Assembly (NCBI GenBank): GCA_900617105.1 | Contig: UYFQ01000723.1 | Coordinates: 1 to 64,000 of the forward strand | DNA length: 64,000 nucleotides | Direction of reading: 5' to 3' | Source of the DNA: Hydrurus foetidus | Lineage: Eukaryota | Shown here: positions 1 to 10,205 of the stretch, piece by piece | Layout: the number at the start of each line of letters is the position of its first letter | Position numbering within the stretch: position 1 is the first letter of the stretch | Position numbers and translations under genes: made by a program | The notes under the pieces: generated by a model | Told to the model about the DNA's origin: nothing | The model's database searches: none | The model's input: only the letters and a program-made list of their open reading frames with translations

Positions 1-65
1 TATTTTAAATGCGTTTTGTCTGTCTGCTAAATGTTGATTCAACTGGATCGGCTAAACTTGCTTGC

Positions 66-248
66 AACGAAAAAGGCTTGGCGTTGTTGGGGAATTCCGT
101 CCGCCCATAACCGAAGCCCAATGATTGCAATATTGCTGATGTTTTATTCATAAGCCAAATTTATAACGTCAAGCCCGAACTGAAGCACAATAAAGAACAA
201 ATGTTGAGGCAATATTCGTCAAGCCCCAATAATGCCAAACCTAATGTT
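66..248. repeat. attC-like array repeat 1
   Basis: AACGAAAAAGGCTTGGCG...GCCAAACCTAATGTT; about 7 bp shorter internally than other copies. Confidence 0.95.
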
Positions 249-259
249 GTGTGCCGTAA

Positions 260-740
260 TTATTCGTCCATAAAGTCACTTCCAAATAAAGTATAATCCT
301 ATTTGCCCTTCACTTTAGCTTTGTCCATAAAAAATGAGACATCTCTTTATTCCTTTTGTTTGTTTGTCCATTAAAACATAGCAATTTCTCCAACGTCATT
401 GTCAATGTCAAACTTACTTTTTGTCGAAACCTACTGAAAAGAGTTTTTAACATTTTCAAAATAAAGTCTTGAACTCAACTGTCATAAATCAAAGTCTATA
501 TGTAATGTCTAATATTTTTAATGACTGCCTCAAGTCTAACCTACTCCTCCAATTAAACTCAAAACACCTGAAGACTAGGCTTGATTTTCTATTTCTTTTT
601 GTAATATTCAATTCCATTGTCGCCCTTTGTCAACATAAGTCAGTTTTGAAACTTTACGAAAACTGTCCATCATTGAAATAGATAATTTTGACACGTCAAC
701 ATTAAAGAATATTCATTGAGTTGTTGAGTAAAAGTCATTG
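260..740 (-). CDS. Cassette B hypothetical protein (frameshifted; limits approximate)
   Basis: Fragmented minus-strand reading ending ...FGSDFMDE* beside the cassette end; no family recognised. Confidence 0.35.
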
Positions 741-811
741 TCTGTGTAATGAAATTTGTCGTCAAAATGATAGAAATATGTAGATTATTTTGTATTCTTA
801 TTATGGCACAC

Positions 812-994
812 AAAAGGCTTATGTTTGTTGGGAATTAGCATTCCGTCAGCCCATAACCGAAGCCCAATGATTGCAATATTGCTGATGTTTTATTCATAAG
901 CCAAATTTATAACGTCAAGCCCGAACTGAAGCTCAATAAAGAACAAATGTTGAGGCAATATTCGTCAAGCCCCAATAATGCCAAACCTAATGTT
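812..994. repeat. attC-like array repeat 2
   Basis: Same repeat; left end garbled (caaaaggcttatg). Confidence 0.9.
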
Positions 995-1021
995 GCACGT
1001 TGTTTTGTCGGTCTGACAATC

Positions 1022-1520
1022 TTAAATTCAACCGATACTTGTTTTTAAAATTCCAAGTTGTCTGTCTTGGTACCAAAATTTAGGACTCGTATTTGATAAT
1101 ATACAACCTGGTAAGTTTCTACTTGTCCTTTGTCAGCAAGTAATTAATTTCTTCCTGTTTTCCAAACAAGCAATTTGTATTGTCTTTTTTATGGCAAAAT
1201 GCTTGACTTGTACAAATTGTCAAAAAGTCTGTGTGAATTTTAAAGTTAATTGTTGTCCTAACAATTGGTCTGTGTCCAAGTTATAAATTTTGCTTTCTTT
1301 CTCGTCATTCAAAACGCAGTAAAAAGTTTTCTTTGGGGTTTGAAGTGTCAAGCGATAAATGTCTAAAACCTTCAATATTGATTGTGTCATTGAGAAAGGA
1401 AAACAAAAAAGCTTTTCTAAAAGATGATGAACCATTAATCATAACCTTTTTGTCCAACTTATTTTGTCCAAACAAAGTTGTCGAAAGTGTGATTAGTATT
1501 GTTAAATGAGTGGTCCTTAT
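1022..1520 (-). CDS. Cassette C (copy 1) secreted hypothetical protein
   Basis: Signal-peptide-like LILTILITLSTTLFGQ; near-identical to 7414-7925. Confidence 0.6.
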
Positions 1521-1530
1521 AAATGCGTGC

Positions 1531-1716
1531 AACGAAAAGGCTTGGCGTTTGTTGGGGAATTAGAATTCCGTCTGCCCATAACCGAAGCCCAATGATTGCA
1601 ATATTGCTGATGTTTTATTCATAAGCCAAATTTATAACGTCAAGCCCGAACTGAAGTACAAAGAACAAATGCTGAGGCTATATTCGTCAAGCCCCAATAA
1701 TGCCAAACCTAATGTT
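1531..1716. repeat. attC-like array repeat 3
   Basis: AAC at 1531 to GTT ending 1716. Confidence 0.95.
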
Positions 1717-1732
1717 AGTGGTGGCGTTTTGT

Positions 1733-2365
1733 TTTAGTTTGTCTGAATTTCACAATTGTACATAGTCCAATTTATGTTTAGTATTTGTCGGTCTTTTATT
1801 ATTGTTTATTTTTTTTGTTATAGACTTCAAGTATTGCTCCTAAAACAGAATTGTTTTGTCATACTTATTTACTTTGCTGAATGTAAATATTGTCATTATT
1901 TCATTCTCGTATCTGTCAATTTCGTTGCTATTAATAATTTGATATAAACTTTCATCGTTTTTTTCTGTTAGAATTGATTTTTCAGCTCTATAATCTTATC
2001 GAATACTGTGTCATCATACTGCTATTCAAAAACTGAAACCAAATTGTCCTTCTAAAGTCTCAAGTCTCTACTAAGGAACAATAAGCTTTGTCCTTTTGTC
2101 AGAATTTGAAACTTTAAATCATATCAAGCTCTCTCCAACAACTGGTATATGTTTGATGTCATAATGGAGTTTGTAAATCTTATAGAATTGGTTTTCAAGT
2201 GTAGTCAAGTTTCTTTGCGTTATAACATCTGTCAAAAGCTGCTATAGAAAGTTCTTTTCAATATTATCAGGGTCGATTGATTCAATGATTTTGCAAAGTT
2301 CAAATGAATCACAATTGCCATTTTCTTTTTCATGTGTTGTAAAAAACAATTGTAATGTTAAACAT
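1733..2365 (-). CDS. Cassette D (copy 1) hypothetical protein
   Basis: Near-identical to 5698-6340 but with more indels. Confidence 0.6.
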
Positions 2366-2411
2366 TGATTTCTTTATAAAATTGAGGATGTAAGTCATTT
2401 TACGTTGCCGC

Positions 2412-2600
2412 AACGAAAAAGGCTTGGCGTTTGTTGGGGAATTAGTATTCCGTCTGCCCATAACCGAAGCCCAATGATTGCAATATTGCTGATGTTTTAT
2501 TCATAAGCCAAATTTATAACGTCAAGCCCGAACTGAAGCACAATAAAGAACAAATGTTGAGGCTATATTCGTCAAGCCCAATAATGCCAAACCTAATGTT
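2412..2600. repeat. attC-like array repeat 4
   Basis: AAC at 2412 to GTT ending 2600. Confidence 0.95.
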
Positions 2601-2610
2601 GGTAGTAGTT

Positions 2611-3130
2611 TTATTCTTCATCGTTTTGTCAAAAATTAATCGCTAAATTACTATTGACAGCAAGTTCAAATCGCTTTCCAAGTTTAATTTTTCAGTTCTC
2701 TCAAAAGCTATATTGCCAATTTCTAATAAAGCTGGATTTAGTTTGTCCAACATTTTGCCCGATGAAATTTCTTCCAATTGTCCTTTTTATACTTTTATAT
2801 GTTAAATTCTTCAAAATTTCTCAATTCAAATTCTGCTGGATTACAAAGTCGACTACCATTTAATGGTTTAAATAATTCTGCTTGTTCAAAAATCTTTGTT
2901 TGCCATATGTTCGTCATATAATACTTCTTATTCCGTTGATTTGACTTTTCAACTGATTTTAATTGAGTTTGTCTTTCTGTCAAAATTAATTGAACTTTTA
3001 CAGCAGCGTTAGGGTCAGTCCAAATATTTATAGTATAAATTTTAAAATCTGATATTCTTTTTACTATTCTACTAAATGCTTTGTCAACTAAAATACTCAT
3101 TTCAGTTATGTACAAAGTCTTGTCAAAACT
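2611..3130 (-). CDS. Cassette E hypothetical protein (limits approximate)
   Basis: ORF 2795-3187 (...FKIYTINIWTDPNAA...LCNPAEFELRNF) continues in another frame to the cassette end. Confidence 0.5.
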
Positions 3131-3185
3131 TGATTTAAAAAATTGAATAAATATTAGGAATTTTTGGGTCTTTAAAAATTGCACC

Positions 3186-3373
3186 AACGAAAAAGGCTTG
3201 GCGTTGTTGGGGAATTAGATTCCGTCTGCCCATAACCGAAGCCCAATGATTGCAATATTGCTGATGTTTTATTCATAAGCCAAATTTATAACGTCAAGCC
3301 CGAACTGAAGCACAATAAAGAACAAATGTTGAGGCTATATTCGTCAAGCCCCAATAATGCCAAACCTAATGTT
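3186..3373. repeat. attC-like array repeat 5
   Basis: AAC at 3186 to GTT ending 3373. Confidence 0.95.
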
Positions 3374-3384
3374 GGCTGCAGTAT

Positions 3385-3920
3385 TTATTTTCTTTGAAAT
3401 AGTTCAATAATTTGTTCTTTGTCGAAACAGATAAGCTTTAAAACATTCTCTCCCCAATGGTTTGATTTAATTGCCAACTCATTTGTGAAATTGAATTTAA
3501 CTATACCACCTTTTAACATTGTCATTTGACTCTGTCTTAGCAAAGGTGTCAACTCAATTATTCTATCAAAATGAAGACTTGTGTCTTTGTTTAATCGCTC
3601 TGAAATATGCACACCATTTATTGAAGGAACCCAATGTCCTTTATAACCAATGTCCAAAAATTGTGTATGAAATTAATGATGTCGCATTAAACAAATTCAA
3701 CTTGTTTCTAAAATTTTTACCTTAAACTGTCAATATGGATACTGTCTTTGATTTGTCCACCAATCCAATTCATATGTGGTGGTAACTTCATTTTTAGGTT
3801 TCTTTGGTTCTGTTGATAAAATATTTTGTTTACCAAAGTCTGTTGTATAAAAGTAAATAATACTTAGTCCAATAATAACTATTGCAAAAATTATCAATAT
3901 CCATTTAATAAGTTTTCTCT
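3385..3920 (-). CDS. Cassette F membrane-anchored hypothetical protein
   Basis: N-terminal hydrophobic stretch KWILIIFAIVIIGLSIIYFY; C-terminal part is ORF 3385-3657. Confidence 0.55.
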
Positions 3921-3932
3921 ATAATTGCTGCC

Positions 3933-4122
3933 AACGAAAAAGGCTTGGCGTTTGTTGGGGAATTAGTATTCCGTCTGCCCATAACCGAAGCCCAATGATT
4001 GCAATATTGCTGATGTTTTATTCATAAGCCAAATTTATAACGTCAAGCCCGAACTGAAGCACAATAAAGAACAAATGTTGAGGCTATATTCGTCAAGCCC
4101 CAATAATGCCAAACCTAATGTT
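3933..4122. repeat. attC-like array repeat 6
   Basis: AAC at 3933 to GTT ending 4122. Confidence 0.95.
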
Positions 4123-4149
4123 GTTGCTTTGGTCAACCAGACGAAAGCT

Positions 4150-4625
4150 ATTGAAATAATTTTATAACCTGTCAATCATTGTCATATCTACGCTTTTACT
4201 TTTCTTTTTAGTCAAATAAATAAACTTTCCATAGTTCGTCTAAATTAGTCAAGTTTATTAACTCTTGTTTTTGTCTGCGTAAATAAACTTCAAAACTTCT
4301 TCCCGTTACAATCAATCGTTTTCAATTTTACTGTCAAGAAATCTTTGTGTCTCGTTTAAATAAAAAGCATAGTCGTCAGCACCAACATAAAAAATCTTCT
4401 CCCAACTCTTTTTCCTTTTGCAATTTGTAAACTGTCTGCATCTCTACTATTACTGCACAAGTTTGGTCTACAACTAAGTGTCAGTATTAACAGTTTTGTC
4501 TCTACTTGGTAGTTGCATTTTTGTTGTGTCAATTTGGTTATTGTCATTATTAGATGCTTGATTGCAAGATGCAAACATAGTCAGTCCAAAAAATAATGTC
4601 TTTGAAGTAAAGTTGAAAGTGTCAT
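4150..4625 (-). CDS. Cassette G putative lipoprotein (frameshifted)
   Basis: Stitched reading ...TLFFGLTMFASCNQASNNDNNQIDTTK... contains a lipobox-like FASC. Confidence 0.55.
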
Positions 4626-4676
4626 TTTATGTTTTGATTTTATTGCAAGTTTTGGTGGTCAAATAAAGTTGCAGCC

Positions 4677-4866
4677 AACGAAAAAGGCTTGGCGTTTGTT
4701 GGGGAATTAGAATTCCGTCAGCCCATAACCGAAGCCCAATGATTGCAATATTGCTGATGTTTTATTCATAAGCCAAATTTATAACGTCAAGCCCGAACTG
4801 AAGCACAATAAAGAACAAATGTTGAGGCAATATTCGTCAAGCCCCAATAATGCCAAACCTAATGTT
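4677..4866. repeat. attC-like array repeat 7
   Basis: AAC at 4677 to GTT ending 4866. Confidence 0.95.
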
Positions 4867-5489
4867 GCAAGCAGGTTTTCTTTCCTGTCGTTCTATTTTG
4901 TGTTCCTTTCAAACTAAAACCAGTTTCAATTTGTGAATGAGTTTTGTCGAACCCAAACAAGTTTTAAACATATAAATAATTACAAAATTTTTCTACGAGT
5001 TGTTCTTTGTCAAACCACAACAAAACTGCAAATGGTGAGCAAGATTTGAATTTATAAACTTCTGTTTTCTTTGTCAACTTGCAGCAATTTCAAAACCTAA
5101 AAACAAGTCTAAATTACGTCTGCTTAAAATGGTCAGTATCTTTTACTCAACTCGTCAGTATGTTTTGCCAAACTCATCAGTATCTTTTACAAACTCGTCT
5201 ATATGTTTTTGAACCTTGCTTTTGTTCTTGTTTGTTGCAGCATTTAGTCAAGCAATTTTGTCTGCACTTGGTGATTGTCCAACCAATTTTGTTATGTCCT
5301 GCTTTTTAGACTTTAGCAAAAGTCCACCAAGAACAAAAGATGAAAAAGAACTGATGCCCTAAAAACTACGAAAGCCAAATTGAAAAACAAAAGTTGATGT
5401 GGGCTTTGGCTCAAGTCTTACCAGATATTTTAAATGCGTTTTGTCTGTCTGCTAAATGTTGATTCAACTGATCGGCTAAACTTGCTTGC
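4867..5489. other. Cassette A (apparently ORF-less); further copies at 6575-7195 and partially at 1-65
   Basis: No minus-strand ORF of 60 aa or more in either full copy; plus-strand ORFs are short and unconvincing; 3 x ~22 bp tandem at 5132-5199. Confidence 0.6.
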
Positions 5490-5679
5490 AACGAAAAAGG
5501 CTTGGCGTTTGTTGGGGAATTAGTATTCCGTCTGCCCATAACCGAAGCCCAATGATTGCAATATTGCTGATGTTTTATTCATAAGCCAAATTTATAACGT
5601 CAAGCCCGAACTGAAGTACAATAAAGAACAAATGTTGAGGCTATATTCGTCAAGCCCCAATAATGCCAAACCTAATGTT
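5490..5679. repeat. attC-like array repeat 8
   Basis: AAC at 5490 to GTT ending 5679. Confidence 0.95.
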
Positions 5680-5697
5680 AGTGGCAGGCGTTTTGTT

Positions 5698-6340
5698 TTA
5701 GCTTGTCTGAATTTCACAATTGTACATAGTCCAATTTATGTTTAGTATTTGTCGGTCTTTGATATTGTTTATTTTTTTGTTATAGACTTCTTATGGGCTG
5801 TCTTCTAAAACAGAATTGCTTTGTCATACTTATTTACTTTGCTATAACTGTAAATATTGTCAATTATTTCATTCTCGTATCTGTCAATTTCTTTGTCGCT
5901 GTTATTAATAATTTGATATAAACTTTCATCGTTTTTTCTGTTAGAATTGATTTTTCAGCTTCTATAATCTTATCGAATACTGTGTCAGACATACTGCTAT
6001 TCAAAAACTGAAAACCAAATTGTCCTTCTAAAGTCTCAAGTCTCTCTACTAAGGAACAATAAGCTTTGTCCTTTGTCAGAATTTGAAACTTTAAATCAAT
6101 ATCAAGCTCTCTTCCAACAACTGGTATATGTTTGATGTCATAATGGAGTTTGTAAATCTTTATAGAATTGGTTTCAAGTGTAGTCAAGTTTTGCAAGTTA
6201 TAACATCTGTCAAAAGCTGCTATAGAAAGTTCTTCAAATATTATTTCAGGGTCGATTGATTCAATGATTTTGCAAAGTTCAAATGAATCACAATTGCCAT
6301 TTTCTTTATGTGTTGTAAAAACAATTGTAATGTTAAACAT
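5698..6340 (-). CDS. Cassette D (copy 2) hypothetical protein, possibly TraB/ChaN-like fold
   Basis: ORF 5864-6340 MFNITIVFTTHKENGNC...PEIIFEEL, with a frameshifted C-terminus (YDKAILF...AH); the fold call is a motif-level guess. Confidence 0.65.
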
Positions 6341-6384
6341 TGATTTCTATAAAATTGAGGATGTGTCATTTTACGCTTGCCGCT

Positions 6385-6574
6385 AACGAAAAAGGCTTGG
6401 CGTTTGTTGGGGAATTAGAATTCCGTCAGCCCATAACCGAAGCCCAATAATTGCAATATTGCTGATGTTTTATTCATAAGCCAAATTTATAACGTCAAGC
6501 CCGAACTGAAGTACAATAAAGAACAAATGCTGAGGCAATATTCGTCAAGCCCCAATAATGCCAAACCTAATGTT
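6385..6574. repeat. attC-like array repeat 9
   Basis: AAC at 6385 to GTT ending 6574. Confidence 0.95.
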
Positions 6575-7195
6575 GCAAGCAGGTTTTCTTTCCTGTCGTT
6601 CTATTTTGTGTTCCTTTCAAACTAAAACCAGTTTCAATTTGTGAATGAGTTTTGTCGAACCCAAACAAGTTTTAAACATATAAATAATTACAAAATTTTT
6701 TCTACGAGTTGTTCTTTGTCAAACCACAACAAAACTGCAAATGGTGAGCAAGATTTGAATTTATAAACTTCGTTTTCTTTGTCAACTTGCAGCAATTTCA
6801 AAACCTAAAAACAAGTCTAAATTACGTCTGCTTAAAATGGTCAGTATCTTTTACTCAACTCGTCAGTATGTTTTGCCAAACTCATCAGTATCTTTTACAA
6901 ACTCGTCTATATGTTTTGAACCTTGCTTTTGTTCTTGTTTGTTGCAGCAATTTAGTCAAGCAATTTTGTCTGCACTTGGTGATTGTCCAACCAATTTTGT
7001 TATGTCCTGCTTTTTAGACTTTAGCAAAAGTCCACCAAGAACAAAAGATGAAAAGAACTGATGCCCTAAAAACTACGAAAGCAAATTGAAAAACAAAAGT
7101 TGATGTGGGCTTTGGCTCAAGTCTTACCAGATATTTTAAATGCGTTTTGTCTGTCTGCTAAATGTTGATTCAACTGATCGGCTAAACTTGCTTGC
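6575..7195. other. Cassette A, second full copy
   Basis: Near-identical to 4867-5489. Confidence 0.6.
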
Positions 7196-7385
7196 AACGA
7201 AAAAGGCTTGGCGTTTGTTGGGGAATTAGTATTCCGTCTGCCCATAACCGAAGCCCAATGATTGCAATATTGCTGATGTTTTATTCATAAGCCAAATTTA
7301 TAACGTCAAGCCCGAACTGAAGCACAATAAAGAACAAATGTTGAGGCTATATTCGTCAAGCCCCAATAATGCCAAACCTAATGTT
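7196..7385. repeat. attC-like array repeat 10
   Basis: AAC at 7196 to GTT ending 7385. Confidence 0.95.
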
Positions 7386-7413
7386 GCACGCCGTTTTGGT
7401 CGGTCTGACAATC

Positions 7414-7925
7414 TTAAATTGTCAACCGATACTTTGTTTTAAAATTCCAAGTTGTCTGTCTTACAATAAAATTTAGGACTCGTATTTGATAATATACAAC
7501 CTGCAAGTTTCACTTGTCCTTTGTCAGCAAGTGCAATTAATTTCTTCCCAGGTTTTCCATAAACAAAAGGAATTACATTGTCTTTTTATGGCAAAATGGG
7601 CAAAGTTTTGACTTGTACAAATTGTCAAAAAGTCTGTGTCAGGAATTTTAAAGTTAATTGTTGTGTCTAACAATTGGTCTGTGTCAAGTTATAAATTTTG
7701 CTTTTCTCGTCATTCAAAACGCAGTAAAAGTTTTCTTTTGGGGTTTGAAGTGTCAAGCGATAAATGTCTAAAACCTTCAATATTGATTGTGTCATTGAGT
7801 AAAGGGAAAACAAAAAGCTTTGTCAAAAGATGATGAACCATTAATCATAACCTTTTGTCCAACTTATTTTGTCCAAATAAAGTTGTCGAAAGTGTGATTA
7901 GTATTGTTAAAATGAGTGGTCTCAT
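7414..7925 (-). CDS. Cassette C (copy 2, leader-proximal) secreted hypothetical protein
   Basis: ATG at 7925: MRPLILTILITLSTTLFGQNKLDK... Confidence 0.65.
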
Positions 7926-7937
7926 AAAATGGCGTGC

Positions 7938-8075
7938 AACTCAAAATATACGCATTGCCATTTTGCCAAATATTTTTGAGTCTAAATAATTGTTTTCAAT
8001 CAATGTTTGCAAATATGTACGTAGTTTCAAAACTACGTACATTTCAATATTTTTTCAACTACGTACATTTCAATA
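7938..8075 (-). promoter_or_regulatory. Array leader: attI-like junction plus candidate Bacteroidota promoter with operator-like repeats
   Basis: The final AAC (7938) is not followed by a repeat. Minus strand has TTG (8056-8058), 20 bp spacer, TAGTTTTG (8028-8035). There is a 13 bp inverted repeat at 8015-8042 and a 19 bp direct repeat at 8031 and 8057. Confidence 0.55.
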
Positions 8076-8102: not shown

Positions 8103-8441
8103 TTAAGGCTTCGCCTTTCCCATCAATCTATTGCTTCCTTCAAGGTTGCCACTTGTATTTTTAGGTTTTCATTTTCTTTTTGCAAAGCTTCAACATCGGC
8201 ATTGGGTATGGGTGCATTGCTTGGTGGCAGGTGGTTTAGCTGTGCTGCTATTTGTTCAAAAAATTATAGTTTAGCACTTGACAAATTTTAAATAGGGTAT
8301 CTATTTTGGCATTGGGATTTTTAACAAATCCTTCAACAGCACTGGCACCAATACCCATTTGCTTTGCCCAACCTGCTTTAAAAATTCTTTTTCTTTTACA
8401 TAAGCATTTAGCATATTGCCTATATGGGGAGATTCTATCAT
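8103..8441 (-). CDS. XRE-like helix-turn-helix protein with C-terminal coiled coil
   Basis: Stitched MIESPHIGNMLNAYVKEKRIFKAGWAKQMGIGASAVEGFVKNPNAKIDTLFKICQVLNYNF...LQKENENLKIQVATLKEAI. Confidence 0.7.
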
Positions 8442-8600
8442 TTTTATGCAATTTATTCACTAAAATTATAATAAAATTGTGATTTTTGTGCATTTTATTA
8501 TAAATAATAACAATTTAATTATATTAAAATTGAATTTAATTATATAATTATTAAATTTTATTTATTATTATTAGAATTAAATTGACCATTTTTATAATTA

Positions 8601-8642
8601 AATTAGGTTTAAAAGTGAATTAAATTCACTTTAAACCTAATT
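8601..8642. terminator. AT-rich palindrome (terminator or operator)
   Basis: AATTAGGTTTAAAAGTGAAT / ATTCACTTTAAACCTAATT just downstream of the 8666-9157 gene. Confidence 0.4.
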
Positions 8643-8665
8643 AATTTAGTTACAACCTAATTTAA

Positions 8666-9157
8666 TTATGGATTTGGTGTGCTTTGTCTGCCACCACCAT
8701 TGTTTTATATCTTTCCTTTAGTTTCCTGCCCTGGTTTGTGCACCTGCAACACCTGCATCTGCCAGGTTTTGATATTGTTCATAAAATACATTGGCTACTT
8801 TATAGCTTTCGGCAGCTACCACTCGTTTGGTTTGCTGCACTCTTGTTATTTGTGCCATCAACCAATTTTCGCTGTCTAATTGTTCAAAAAACTAACATCT
8901 TTAACCAACTCGGGGGCTAGTGCTGCATAGGCTGGTGGCAGCATTGCGTAAGCCTTCGGCATCGGTTACTGCCACAGCATCTTTTACAAAAACATAATTA
9001 TCTACATCAATACTGGGTGTGCATCTTCCTCCTCTTTTGTAAGGGTAACTGTTTTGCCGTTAATAATACCACTGTATGTGGTGTGGGCTGTGCCAAGCGA
9101 TGTAAGCTCGGCAGCAGTAAACGTGTTGCTAACACGATTGACATTAATGTTTGCCAT
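8666..9157 (-). CDS. Hypothetical alpha-helical protein (~160 aa)
   Basis: MANINVNRVSNTFTAAELTSL...SIDVDNYVFVKDAV...AESYKVANVFYEQYQNLADAGVAGAQTRAGKLKERYK (stitched). Confidence 0.7.
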
Positions 9158-9388
9158 AATTTCTTTGTTTTAAATGATTTAATAAATTAACAAGGCAAAA
9201 ATGAAAATTTGGTTTGATATTTTTGGGTGTTTTCACCCAAAATCATTGGGTGAAAACACCATTGTTTAAGCACAAAAAATATCTTATGCAAATTTTTAAT
9301 AATAGATAATCTCTTGAATAATTCGTCTCTCCGTCTATAGAAGAAGTCTTTAAACAATTCTGTTAGGTTGGCGTTTACACAAAGAAGA

Positions 9389-9420
9389 AAAAGGCTACTT
9401 TAAAAGAGGTAGCCTTTTTT
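9389..9420 (+). terminator. Rho-independent terminator-like hairpin
   Basis: AAAAGGCTAC...GTAGCCTTTTTT. Confidence 0.55.
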
Positions 9421-9543
9421 ATTACTTAAAACTGTGAATAATGTAATTAATAGCAGTTCTACTGTAACAAAAAGCACCATAATCAACAGCTTTGCAATAG
9501 TGATTTAACCAAAAACATATTACAAACACTAAAAACATACAAA

Positions 9544-10205
9544 ATGAAAACTTCAAAATTTTATTAATAACTGTTCTATCGATTAGCATTATTTCTACTA
9601 GCTGTAAATCGTGGAATAAATCTCAAAAGGTGCAGCCATTGGTGTTGCTGGTGGTGGTGCAGTTGGTGCAGTTGTTGGCAAAATTGCTGGCAATACTGCA
9701 TTGGGTGCTATTATTGGTGCATCGGTTGGTGGCGTTACAGGTGCAGTTATTGGACACAAAATGGATAAACAAGCAGCAGAAATGCAAAGAATATTCACGA
9801 TGCAAAAGTGGTGAGAGTGGGCGAAGGAATTGTGATTGAGTTTACAGCAAAATTTTATTTGGTGTAAATGAATCTAATCTTTCAACAGAAGCTCAAGGTA
9901 ATTTGGATAAATTAATTGTTGTGCTTCAAAAATATCTGATACCAATATTGAAGGACAAGGACACACAGACAACACAGGCTCGGCAAGTTATAATCAAACT
10001 TTGTCTGAACGCAGAGCTGCTGCTGTTTCAAACTATTTATCTCTAGTGGCATTGCTGCTTCAAGGCTTACTGTTAAAGGGTTTGGAGAAAAACACCTAAA
10101 TATGACAATAGTACAGAAGATGGGCAAGCACAAAATAGAAGGGTTGAATTTTTAGTTACAGCTAACGAAAAATGAAAGCAGAAACAAATAGAAGCAGGGA
10201 AGTAA
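9544..10205 (+). CDS. OmpA-family lipoprotein (glycine zipper plus OmpA C-terminal domain)
   Basis: KGAAIGVAGGGAVGA...MDKQAAE; GHTDNTGSASYNQTLSERRAAAV; NRRVEF. Confidence 0.9.

Follow-up and report, generated by a model that had tools for sequence, protein, structure and literature searches.

Layout of the cassette array

The window considered here, meaning the whole 64,000-nucleotide stretch formed by positions 1 to 64,000 of contig UYFQ01000723.1 (assembly GCA_900617105.1, deposited as Hydrurus foetidus), harbors a row of small gene cassettes over positions 1-7940. The cassettes are separated by ten repeats of about 189 nucleotides (nt) that run from AAC to GTT, the copies ending at 248-7385 (10 matches in a repeat search, 0 expected by chance), and the segments between them measure 540-710 nt. 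The cassette unit consists of GTT, one minus-strand gene, AAC and the repeat, which is a hairpin. In the ten window cassettes the GC content is 0.31-0.35, and the longer open reading frame (ORF) pieces lie on the minus strand. The cassette row is that of a Bacteroidota bacterium. In this report, we describe how the two ends of a cassette pair with each other and how this pairing appears to form part of the recombination site of an integron-like cassette store.

The array starts at an attI-like entry site (7938-7956, minus strand), which agrees with the consensus of the sites that follow the recombinase gene in relatives, except for one base missing from a T run. The first cassette, C (7383-7940, minus strand, as are all the cassettes), has no hairpin before it and shows 11 of 12 end pairs plus a G·T at position 8, in a numbering that begins with the base following GTT and the base preceding AAC. 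From here, plus-strand hairpin sites alternate with cassettes. The site at 7196-7385 is followed by a second copy of cassette A (6572-7198; 99% identical; 11 of 12 pairs plus the G·T), the site at 6385-6574 by cassette D (5677-6387; 10 of 12 plus the G·T; ORF piece 5864-6340), and the site at 5490-5679 by cassette A (4864-5492; 11 of 12 plus the G·T). Then come a site at 4677-4866 and cassette G, with its garbled left end (4120-4679), a site at 3933-4122 and cassette F (3371-3935; 8 of 12 plus the G·T), and a site at 3186-3373 and cassette E (2598-3188; shifted by one base; with an ORF piece at 2795-3187). The site at 2412-2600 leads to a noisy copy of D (1714-2414; 92% identical to 5677-6387), and that at 1531-1716 to a noisy copy of C (992-1533; 89% identical to 7383-7940). 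A site at 812-994, whose left AAC is garbled through a deletion, is followed by cassette B (246-813), which runs from GTT to a garbled AA, has 11 of 12 pairs plus the G·T, and carries a frameshifted gene with a homolog in a related locus (L079). The attC-like hairpin of B occupies 66-248, with the plus strand as the bottom-strand equivalent, and a third copy of A, ending at 68, is cut by the window start.

This DNA is rich in indels: alignments of the duplicate cassettes contain up to 42 gap letters, and the longest stop-to-stop frame between 7900 and 64,000 is 234 residues. A contig from a different sequencing run spans the whole of cassette A (4864), with one other letter and four gaps; among the sequencing runs, the best share of the stretch was 0.24, none reached half, and no contig spanned the whole array. 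For the duplicates of A, C and D, true copies and assembly errors are not separable. The repeated C, A and D cassettes near the array front would fit re-integration at the entry site, though they may also be assembly errors. Three of the window ORF pieces gave no Pfam family.

Pairing between the ends of a cassette

A first-pass annotation of this DNA had claimed that the bases at the left end of each cassette pair with those at the right end of the same cassette, rather than across the hairpin. This is borne out in the window, where the ends of the ten cassettes form 81 Watson-Crick pairs in the 120 cells of positions 1-12 when matched to their own partner and 45 when matched across the hairpin (permutation mean 54, p=3e-5). 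G:C is found at position 5 in seven of the ten cassettes and G·T at position 8 in six; both are present in the six cassettes that are in register. The remaining four (C992, D1714, E2598 and G4120) are shifted by small indels, and they include the two, E and G, for which the annotation had noted a missing base and a garbled end.

For a wider sample, a pattern derived from the repeat matched 139 stretches, of which 131 loci were used, with titles mostly of Chitinophagaceae and other Bacteroidota, together with 40 additional stretches of 20 kb taken from five of the genomes. Sites were called through the hairpin arms only, and the cassette ends were never used in the call. This gave 299 sites and 234 cassettes, 225 of them distinct, from 45 sources. 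Over positions 1-12 the relatives' cassettes average 9.40 pairs between their own ends, against 4.82 after shuffling (maximum 5.12); ends facing each other across a hairpin average 5.03 (n=172), where the same subset has 9.65 with its own ends. Positions 13-20 fall at or below background, so that the stem has a sharp edge at 13. All four pair types are seen at positions 3, 4, 6, 7 and 9-12 among 209 distinct end pairs, which is the covariation that the annotation had proposed to look for in homologous arrays. The own-end pairing is thus real and general.

Two positions within the stem stand out. Position 5, described earlier as always C:G, is largely so among the relatives (G:C in 203 of 225), while the window itself stops short of "always"; position 1 is a purine in 224. 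Position 8 had been described as always T:G, and the part of this that holds is the T, which lies on the AAC arm in 217 of the 225 cassettes; its partner is G in only 176. Counted as pairs, position 8 is Watson-Crick in four cassettes and G·T in 170, and no cassette has all 12 pairs perfect. In most of the other cassettes the G is displaced by a bulge: in the 224 cassettes of at most 1500 nt, G·T stands at position 8 in 177, and a further 27 have the G at 9 behind a one-base bulge. The statement that nearly all mismatches are G:T was too strong, since the non-paired cells of positions 1-7 are G·T in 43 cases, A·C in 21 and something else in 101.

The mark at position 8 recurs in independent selections of loci. 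Among 47 new cassettes from 18 loci picked by their recombinase, position 8 is never Watson-Crick and is G·T in 38, and the pattern is also found in 21 first cassettes. In the order of a Paludibacteraceae genome (G156), where 11 of 20 sampled stretches had a site, ten cassettes collected with no profile gave eight G·T and no Watson-Crick pair. A control set of ten Vibrio integron cassettes has positions 1-6 paired in 7-10 of the ten, followed by a decay (1, 1 and 0 at positions 10-12), and no fixed G·T. The ends of attC sites have been described as having 9-11 paired nt including AAC (Bouvier 2009, PMC2727003, as far as the part consulted goes), which places positions 1-7 inside the known attC range. 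The first-pass figure of about 12 base pairs stands, and the figure of four given for ordinary attC sites was too low a baseline, both from this source and from the six positions of the Vibrio control. The new part is the mark at position 8 and the four pairs beyond it.

The hairpin and its mirrored inner stem

The hairpin carries the same signature on its inner side, a feature that the annotation, partly supported in its interpretation, had overlooked along with the recombinase. In 194 distinct hairpins, the inner stem has G:C or G·T at position 5 in 175 and G·T at position 8 in 155 (Watson-Crick in 11), with the T again on the AAC-bearing arm and pairing extending out to position 14. The stem aligns without gaps over these 14 positions, with a C·A and the G·T present; bulges occur only in a minority, and no conserved extrahelical base was found in these hairpins. 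The C·A stands at the second letter of the inner box on the plus strand in 148 of the 194, where it favors the other strand. This mirrored arrangement suggests a two-fold recombinase site, with the terminal repeat of a cassette as its outer half.

The polarity of the site is indicated by several features. The spacer between the boxes is 7/5 nt in 133 of the 194 hairpins, and the bottom strand of the aadA7 site, taken as a control from the supplement of PMC9892861, has 6/5, which suggests that the plus strand corresponds to the bottom strand. The hairpins are inherited with one of their neighbors: site pairs with a common upstream gene have hairpins at least 0.95 identical in seven of nine cases, whereas those with a common downstream gene are at least 0.9 identical in one of 11, and random pairs in 1%. 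In repeated cassettes, identity stops just past AAC(G) on the plus strand. Each hairpin is thus inherited together with the gene upstream of it, in the manner of attC, which places the crossover at the gene-distal GTT and identifies the plus strand as the bottom-strand equivalent. The opposite assignment, with a hairpin standing ahead of its own gene, does not apply to these chromosomal arrays. The hairpin-less first cassette supports the same placement, so that the equivalence proposed in the annotation is upheld. By analogy with IntI, cutting of the AAC-bearing 5' arm would likewise mean that the plus strand is the one that folds. Of 272 cassettes, 226 have a clear ORF and 46 have none; in 216 of the 226 the gene lies on the strand opposite to the plus-strand fold. 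The gene has its start codon a median of 38 nt in and its stop a median of 15 nt from AAC.

Site lengths fall mostly within 120-129 or 180-199 nt, with clusters near 123-126 nt and near 187-196 nt that are spaced by about 65 nt, although the central sequences differ. Two loci (L033 and L069) contain cassettes of 194-195 nt whose ends are intact and paired but which carry no real gene. The Flavo-1 RNA (RF01705) was considered as the identity of the repeat and rejected: there is no Rfam match at E up to 1, and the published alignment differs in sequence. The repeat was not matched among the plasmids searched.

The recombinase and its entry site

In the relatives, the arrays are headed by a tyrosine recombinase gene, which is co-oriented with the cassettes in all seven cases where an array was detected. 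The protein has the domains Phage_int_SAM_4 and Phage_integrase, and its catalytic residues are intact in 66 aligned homologs. It is not an integron integrase of the usual kind: the TIGR02249 model reached its cut-off in none of five array-bearing genomes, the recombinase scores 176-193 bits against the cut-off of 265, and in four of the five genomes it matched both ends of the model with a profile gap at about 182-237. Compared with VchIntIA (2a3v), it is about 42 residues shorter across the region of I2, the insert by which ordinary integron integrases recognize folded sites, and a predicted model (predicted local distance difference test, pLDDT, 88.7) has VchIntIA 2a3v as its best structural match. 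In a quick tree of 99 rows with three groups sampled, a method that does not resolve a sister relation to IntI, the array-linked family falls outside the clade of IntI1, IntI2 and IntIA and outside XerC/D.

The recombinase also has an extra N-terminal domain of about 70 residues. Its model (pLDDT 65) gives a best Z score of 6.4, with eIF1, CASTOR and the N-terminus of T4 UvsW tied, the last at Z 6.0, a root-mean-square deviation of 2.6 and 66 aligned residues. These matches point to no nameable family, and matches in the structure atlas are unnamed Bacteroidota clusters; a HARP-like domain is no more than a lead.

When 109 loci were picked by the recombinase, 23 of the 50 with at least 1.2 kb of sequence had hairpins downstream, 62 in number and all pointing the same way. 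The cassette-start motif lies downstream of the recombinase in 45 of 82 loci and upstream in eight of 93. Between gene and array, about 70-350 nt behind the gene, is a conserved and hairpin-less attI-like site, with C at -13 (38 of 44), T at -16 (27 of 44), A at -8 (37 of 44) and T at -7 (38 of 44); its upstream bases mirror the cassette start, GTT-N4-G5-NN-A8, around a 5-nt spacer. The window keeps the entry site and homologs of both genes that precede the recombinase in a relative, with about 190 nt where a recombinase gene of about 1.2 kb would be. The gene is missing, and the window's array is therefore either inert or served in trans.

Next to the window's entry site lie accessory repeats (8015-8075), made of an inverted pair (8015-8026/8031-8042) and a direct pair (8031-8049/8057-8075), whose role might be like that of the attI1 direct repeats. 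Similar, locus-specific direct or inverted repeats stand between recombinase and entry site in three other loci (L132, L134 and L135).

Folding and the choice of strand

The annotation had further proposed that the stem stacks on the hairpin once a cassette is circular, and that the T:G wobble favors folding of the plus strand. We rebuilt 212 circular junctions and folded both strands with DNA parameters. The first proposal is supported: the linear junction in the array is on average 7.2 kcal/mol weaker than the circle, and the AAC:GTT pairing probability is 0.40 in the array against 0.92 in the circle. This circle-specific closure is strong. The energy-driven strand bias is weak.

That the same system selects its plus strand thermodynamically, through the G·T wobbles, is the best surviving alternative, and an unlikely one. 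The plus fold is indeed lower in 170 of the 212 full junctions (mean -34.8 against -32.6 kcal/mol, a difference of -2.2) and in 203 of 212 arm-only models (mean -2.6 kcal/mol), and positions 9-12 pair more on plus than on minus (0.59 against 0.51). However, pairing in the core (0.92 and 0.91) and at positions 1-7 (0.89 and 0.88) is equal between the strands, the base held invariant is the T while its partner is tolerant, and the C·A of the inner box acts in the opposite sense. In attC, moreover, the choice of strand relies on a base that is read by the protein (PMC2727003, from the part seen). The annotation had itself named equally good folding of the minus strand as grounds against its proposal, and the two strands come close to that. 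The near-equal folding makes a folding switch the less likely role of the G·T, and recognition by the enzyme the more likely one; the wobble as a thermodynamic strand selector is not supported.

A highly improbable alternative is that the ends are double-stranded inverted binding sites, akin to the terminal repeats of transposons or to Xer/pdif sites, with no single-strand fold. The sequence conservation of G5 and T8, the Xer-like enzyme without I2 and the plain inverted core of the attI-like site would all suit it. It would leave without a reason why positions 1-4, 6, 7 and 9-12 vary freely and are still paired within each cassette, why the hairpin arms likewise co-vary, and why the hairpin travels with the cassette; a fixed non-pair at position 8 is meaningless for symmetric duplex ends.

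Still less probable is an ordinary cluster of attC sites lacking an integrase (CALIN), with classical attC sites on which a true IntI would act in trans. The AAC/GTT boxes, the 5-nt spacer on one arm, the gene-distal GTT crossover and the single gene per cassette are all attC features, and against them stand the ungapped inner stem with no conserved extrahelical base, the different recombinase at the array head, the negative TIGR02249 result given above and the lack of the signature in the Vibrio integron control. Least probable of all is an action of the end pairing in RNA, by transcript closure or cassette creation through reverse transcription: the stem does bracket the gene exactly, but the transcript has the sequence of the minus strand, on which both stems show A·C at position 8, the stem makes up one half of a mirrored site beside a DNA recombinase, and no reverse transcriptase was noted at the array heads, where no systematic search for one was made.

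A proposed mechanism

We regard it as probable that the array is an integron-like cassette store in which the 12-base end stems are the outer half of a folded plus-strand site, cut by a tyrosine recombinase that lacks I2. In the circle, the two ends of a cassette rebuild a stem of seven base pairs, a G·T and four more base pairs, stacked on AAC/GTT. Each box of about 15 base pairs would be bound by one recombinase subunit reading T8-NN-C5-NNNN-AAC, a motif that stands mirrored in the double-stranded attI-like site. In the plus fold, T8 would stand opposite G in both boxes, and in the minus fold C8 would stand opposite A in both, so that the wrong strand could be rejected without extrahelical bases. 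As the stem is complete only in the circle, integration (capture) would be favored over excision. Judged from sequence, recombination would act on a single strand, specifically the bottom-strand equivalent, with a resolution that is presumably replicative, as in integrons. That T8 is read out as the choice of strand is a tentative proposal, towards which we lean slightly less than away. Held more tentatively again is the wider idea of a second, phylum-wide integron lineage that never had I2, in which the mirrored G·T code picks the substrate strand, the 12-base-pair stem licenses only the circle, and the N-terminal domain is a sensor of the fold.

Several observations weigh against this mechanism. 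The cassettes are related, so that their counts do not equal independent events. One genome with sites (G004) has no such recombinase gene in the TIGR02249-based search that found one in four of five genomes, and no recombinase match was found in the 64-kb window. Of the recombinase-picked loci with enough sequence, 27 of 50 have no downstream hairpin (their flanks are short, and the profile was trained on one subfamily), and five of 63 have sites upstream, seven hairpins in all, every one reversed. The T at -16 of the attI-like site is present in only 27 of 44 and is lacking in the window's copy. Finally, the mechanism does not account for the conserved C·A of the inner box.

Relation to known systems

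The system works like an integron and lacks two of the features by which integrons are defined, the I2 domain and the extrahelical bases (both as described in the part of PMC2095811 consulted). Shared are the order of the array, the hairpin-less entry site, the hairpin downstream of each gene, the GTT crossover, the bottom-strand geometry, the complementarity of a cassette's own ends in the circle and the recombinase fold (2a3v). The AAC/GTT hairpins downstream of the genes agree with the attC boxes RYYYAAC...GTTRRRY, although the flanks are not strictly RRRY/RYYY. The array-linked enzyme lacks the I2 of the integron integrase and has the extra N-terminal domain, and its gene runs in the same direction as the cassettes. 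Where integrons use extrahelical bases in the L box to direct the choice of strand, these sites have mirrored G·T marks and the C·A, and, unlike attC, they possess a 12-base-pair outer stem beyond AAC/GTT and a 7/5-nt spacer.

Recombination of a folded single strand by enzymes without I2, and without extrahelical bases, is known from the CTX phage (PMC4792948, in the part seen), but that phage borrows XerCD from its host at dif and lacks a cassette array, whereas here a dedicated enzyme that is neither XerC nor XerD heads the arrays. The Bacteroidota phage P12002L, from Polaribacter, has CALIN sites with AAC...GTT hairpins, and IntI1 recombined one of the two through its bottom strand (PMC9892861, in part). 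These sites were considered as members of the same family and rejected, as in 48.7 kb the site profile matched only one arm, at 7.2 bits.

Among described systems, the nearest is rAID-1 of the Bacteroidales (Ross et al., bioRxiv 10.1101/471110, seen in part), in which a XerD-like recombinase lies 5' of co-directional, low-GC genes with integron-like repeats between them. In the text consulted it is defined by a recombinase more than 44% identical to B. fragilis BF9343_RS08045 and by at least two co-directional downstream genes with a GC content of at most 41% and repetitive intergenic sequences, and its cargo is interbacterial immunity genes. This platform of recombinase, co-directional low-GC genes and integron-like repeats is shared, and the window's ten cassettes, with their minus-strand ORF pieces, low GC content and ten repeats, have the downstream genes so described. 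The hosts and contents appear to differ, in that the present arrays are mostly in records of Chitinophagaceae and carry a broad cargo, and the window lacks a recombinase. The rAID-1 text, as far as seen, gives no site structure, crossover, strand or mechanism, though the motif figure of that paper may show more. As the same recombinase family and site geometry are found in the order of the Paludibacteraceae genome, rAID-1 is probably one branch of the system. The literature covered, which did not extend to subscription papers, contains no description of a mirrored G·T geometry, and the parts seen of PMC8138268, PMC8618304, PMC9723704 and PMC2864571 (supplement) hold nothing specific to these sites.

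The joint origin of I2 and the extrahelical bases has been called a chicken-and-egg problem (Escudero et al. 2016, PMC4792948, seen in part), and a cassette system with neither bears on it. If these arrays are a second lineage with a G·T code, they would be a living answer to the problem of integron origin and would explain rAID-1 in mechanistic terms. The rules of the site (T8, G5, the 7/5 spacer and the 12-base-pair stem) are precise and could be tested with a few oligonucleotides; they also serve as a detector for a large, overlooked reservoir of genes, and the site itself may be a new programmable single-strand site.

Distribution, cargo and neighboring elements

Relatives of the recombinase occur in 83 of 150 genomes of the class of Parasediminibacterium paludis (G005; E up to 1e-40, G093 left out) and in 94 of 201 genomes of the order of G156, counts that include the IS91-linked relatives and are of recombinases rather than of arrays. 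IntegronFinder 2.0 had reported one complete integron in Bacteroidetes (PMC9024848, in the part consulted). The arrays extend to tens of kb, as in a Ferruginibacter genome (G001). Among 150 proteins from relatives' cassettes, 92 have no Pfam family, and the cargo includes restriction, Abi, TIR and OLD-type genes, two beta-lactamase-fold proteins and a single SMI1/KNR4 match.

The Ferruginibacter chromosome (C1) holds four arrays, at 0.14-0.19, 2.17-2.24, 2.53-2.61 and 5.80-5.83 Mb, with 11, 32, 24 and 10 complete sites, respectively; they have cassettes in common, and a head recombinase was found at one only. The same genome has, at one hairpin site (L146, 12609-14688), a 300-residue tyrosine recombinase and an IS91-like transposase, reversed with respect to the array, and copies of the recombinase lie near 2.60 and 5.83 Mb. 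A similar annotated pair is found on a Clostridium plasmid (L295). In the tree, the IS91-linked recombinases form long branches within the array-linked group. Arrays were also seen in five loci (L016, L033, L041, L061 and L069) from genomes titled Bosea, Rhizobium or Methylophilus; these contigs are likely to be mislabelled or mis-binned Bacteroidota DNA, or the product of transfer.

On a Chondrinema plasmid (L292), a homologous recombinase is followed by a first cassette gene and then by a group II intron reverse transcriptase (8708-9988) in reverse orientation, a placement that recalls the attC-targeting introns. Outside the array, the window has a lone look-alike of a cassette right end, AAC followed by GAAAAA (10154-10172), for which no hairpin partner was found.

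Beyond the accessory repeats, the window retains two frameshifted minus-strand genes. The first encodes a Cro/C1-type helix-turn-helix protein (8129-8388), whose homolog lies directly before the recombinase in P. paludis, and the second (8730-9157) is a homolog of the 164-residue gene two places before it in that genome. In the P. paludis locus (L134) the two genes lie at 25-1138, ahead of the recombinase at 1180-2352, and, with the window pair at 8129-9157, they represent a possible regulator of the system.

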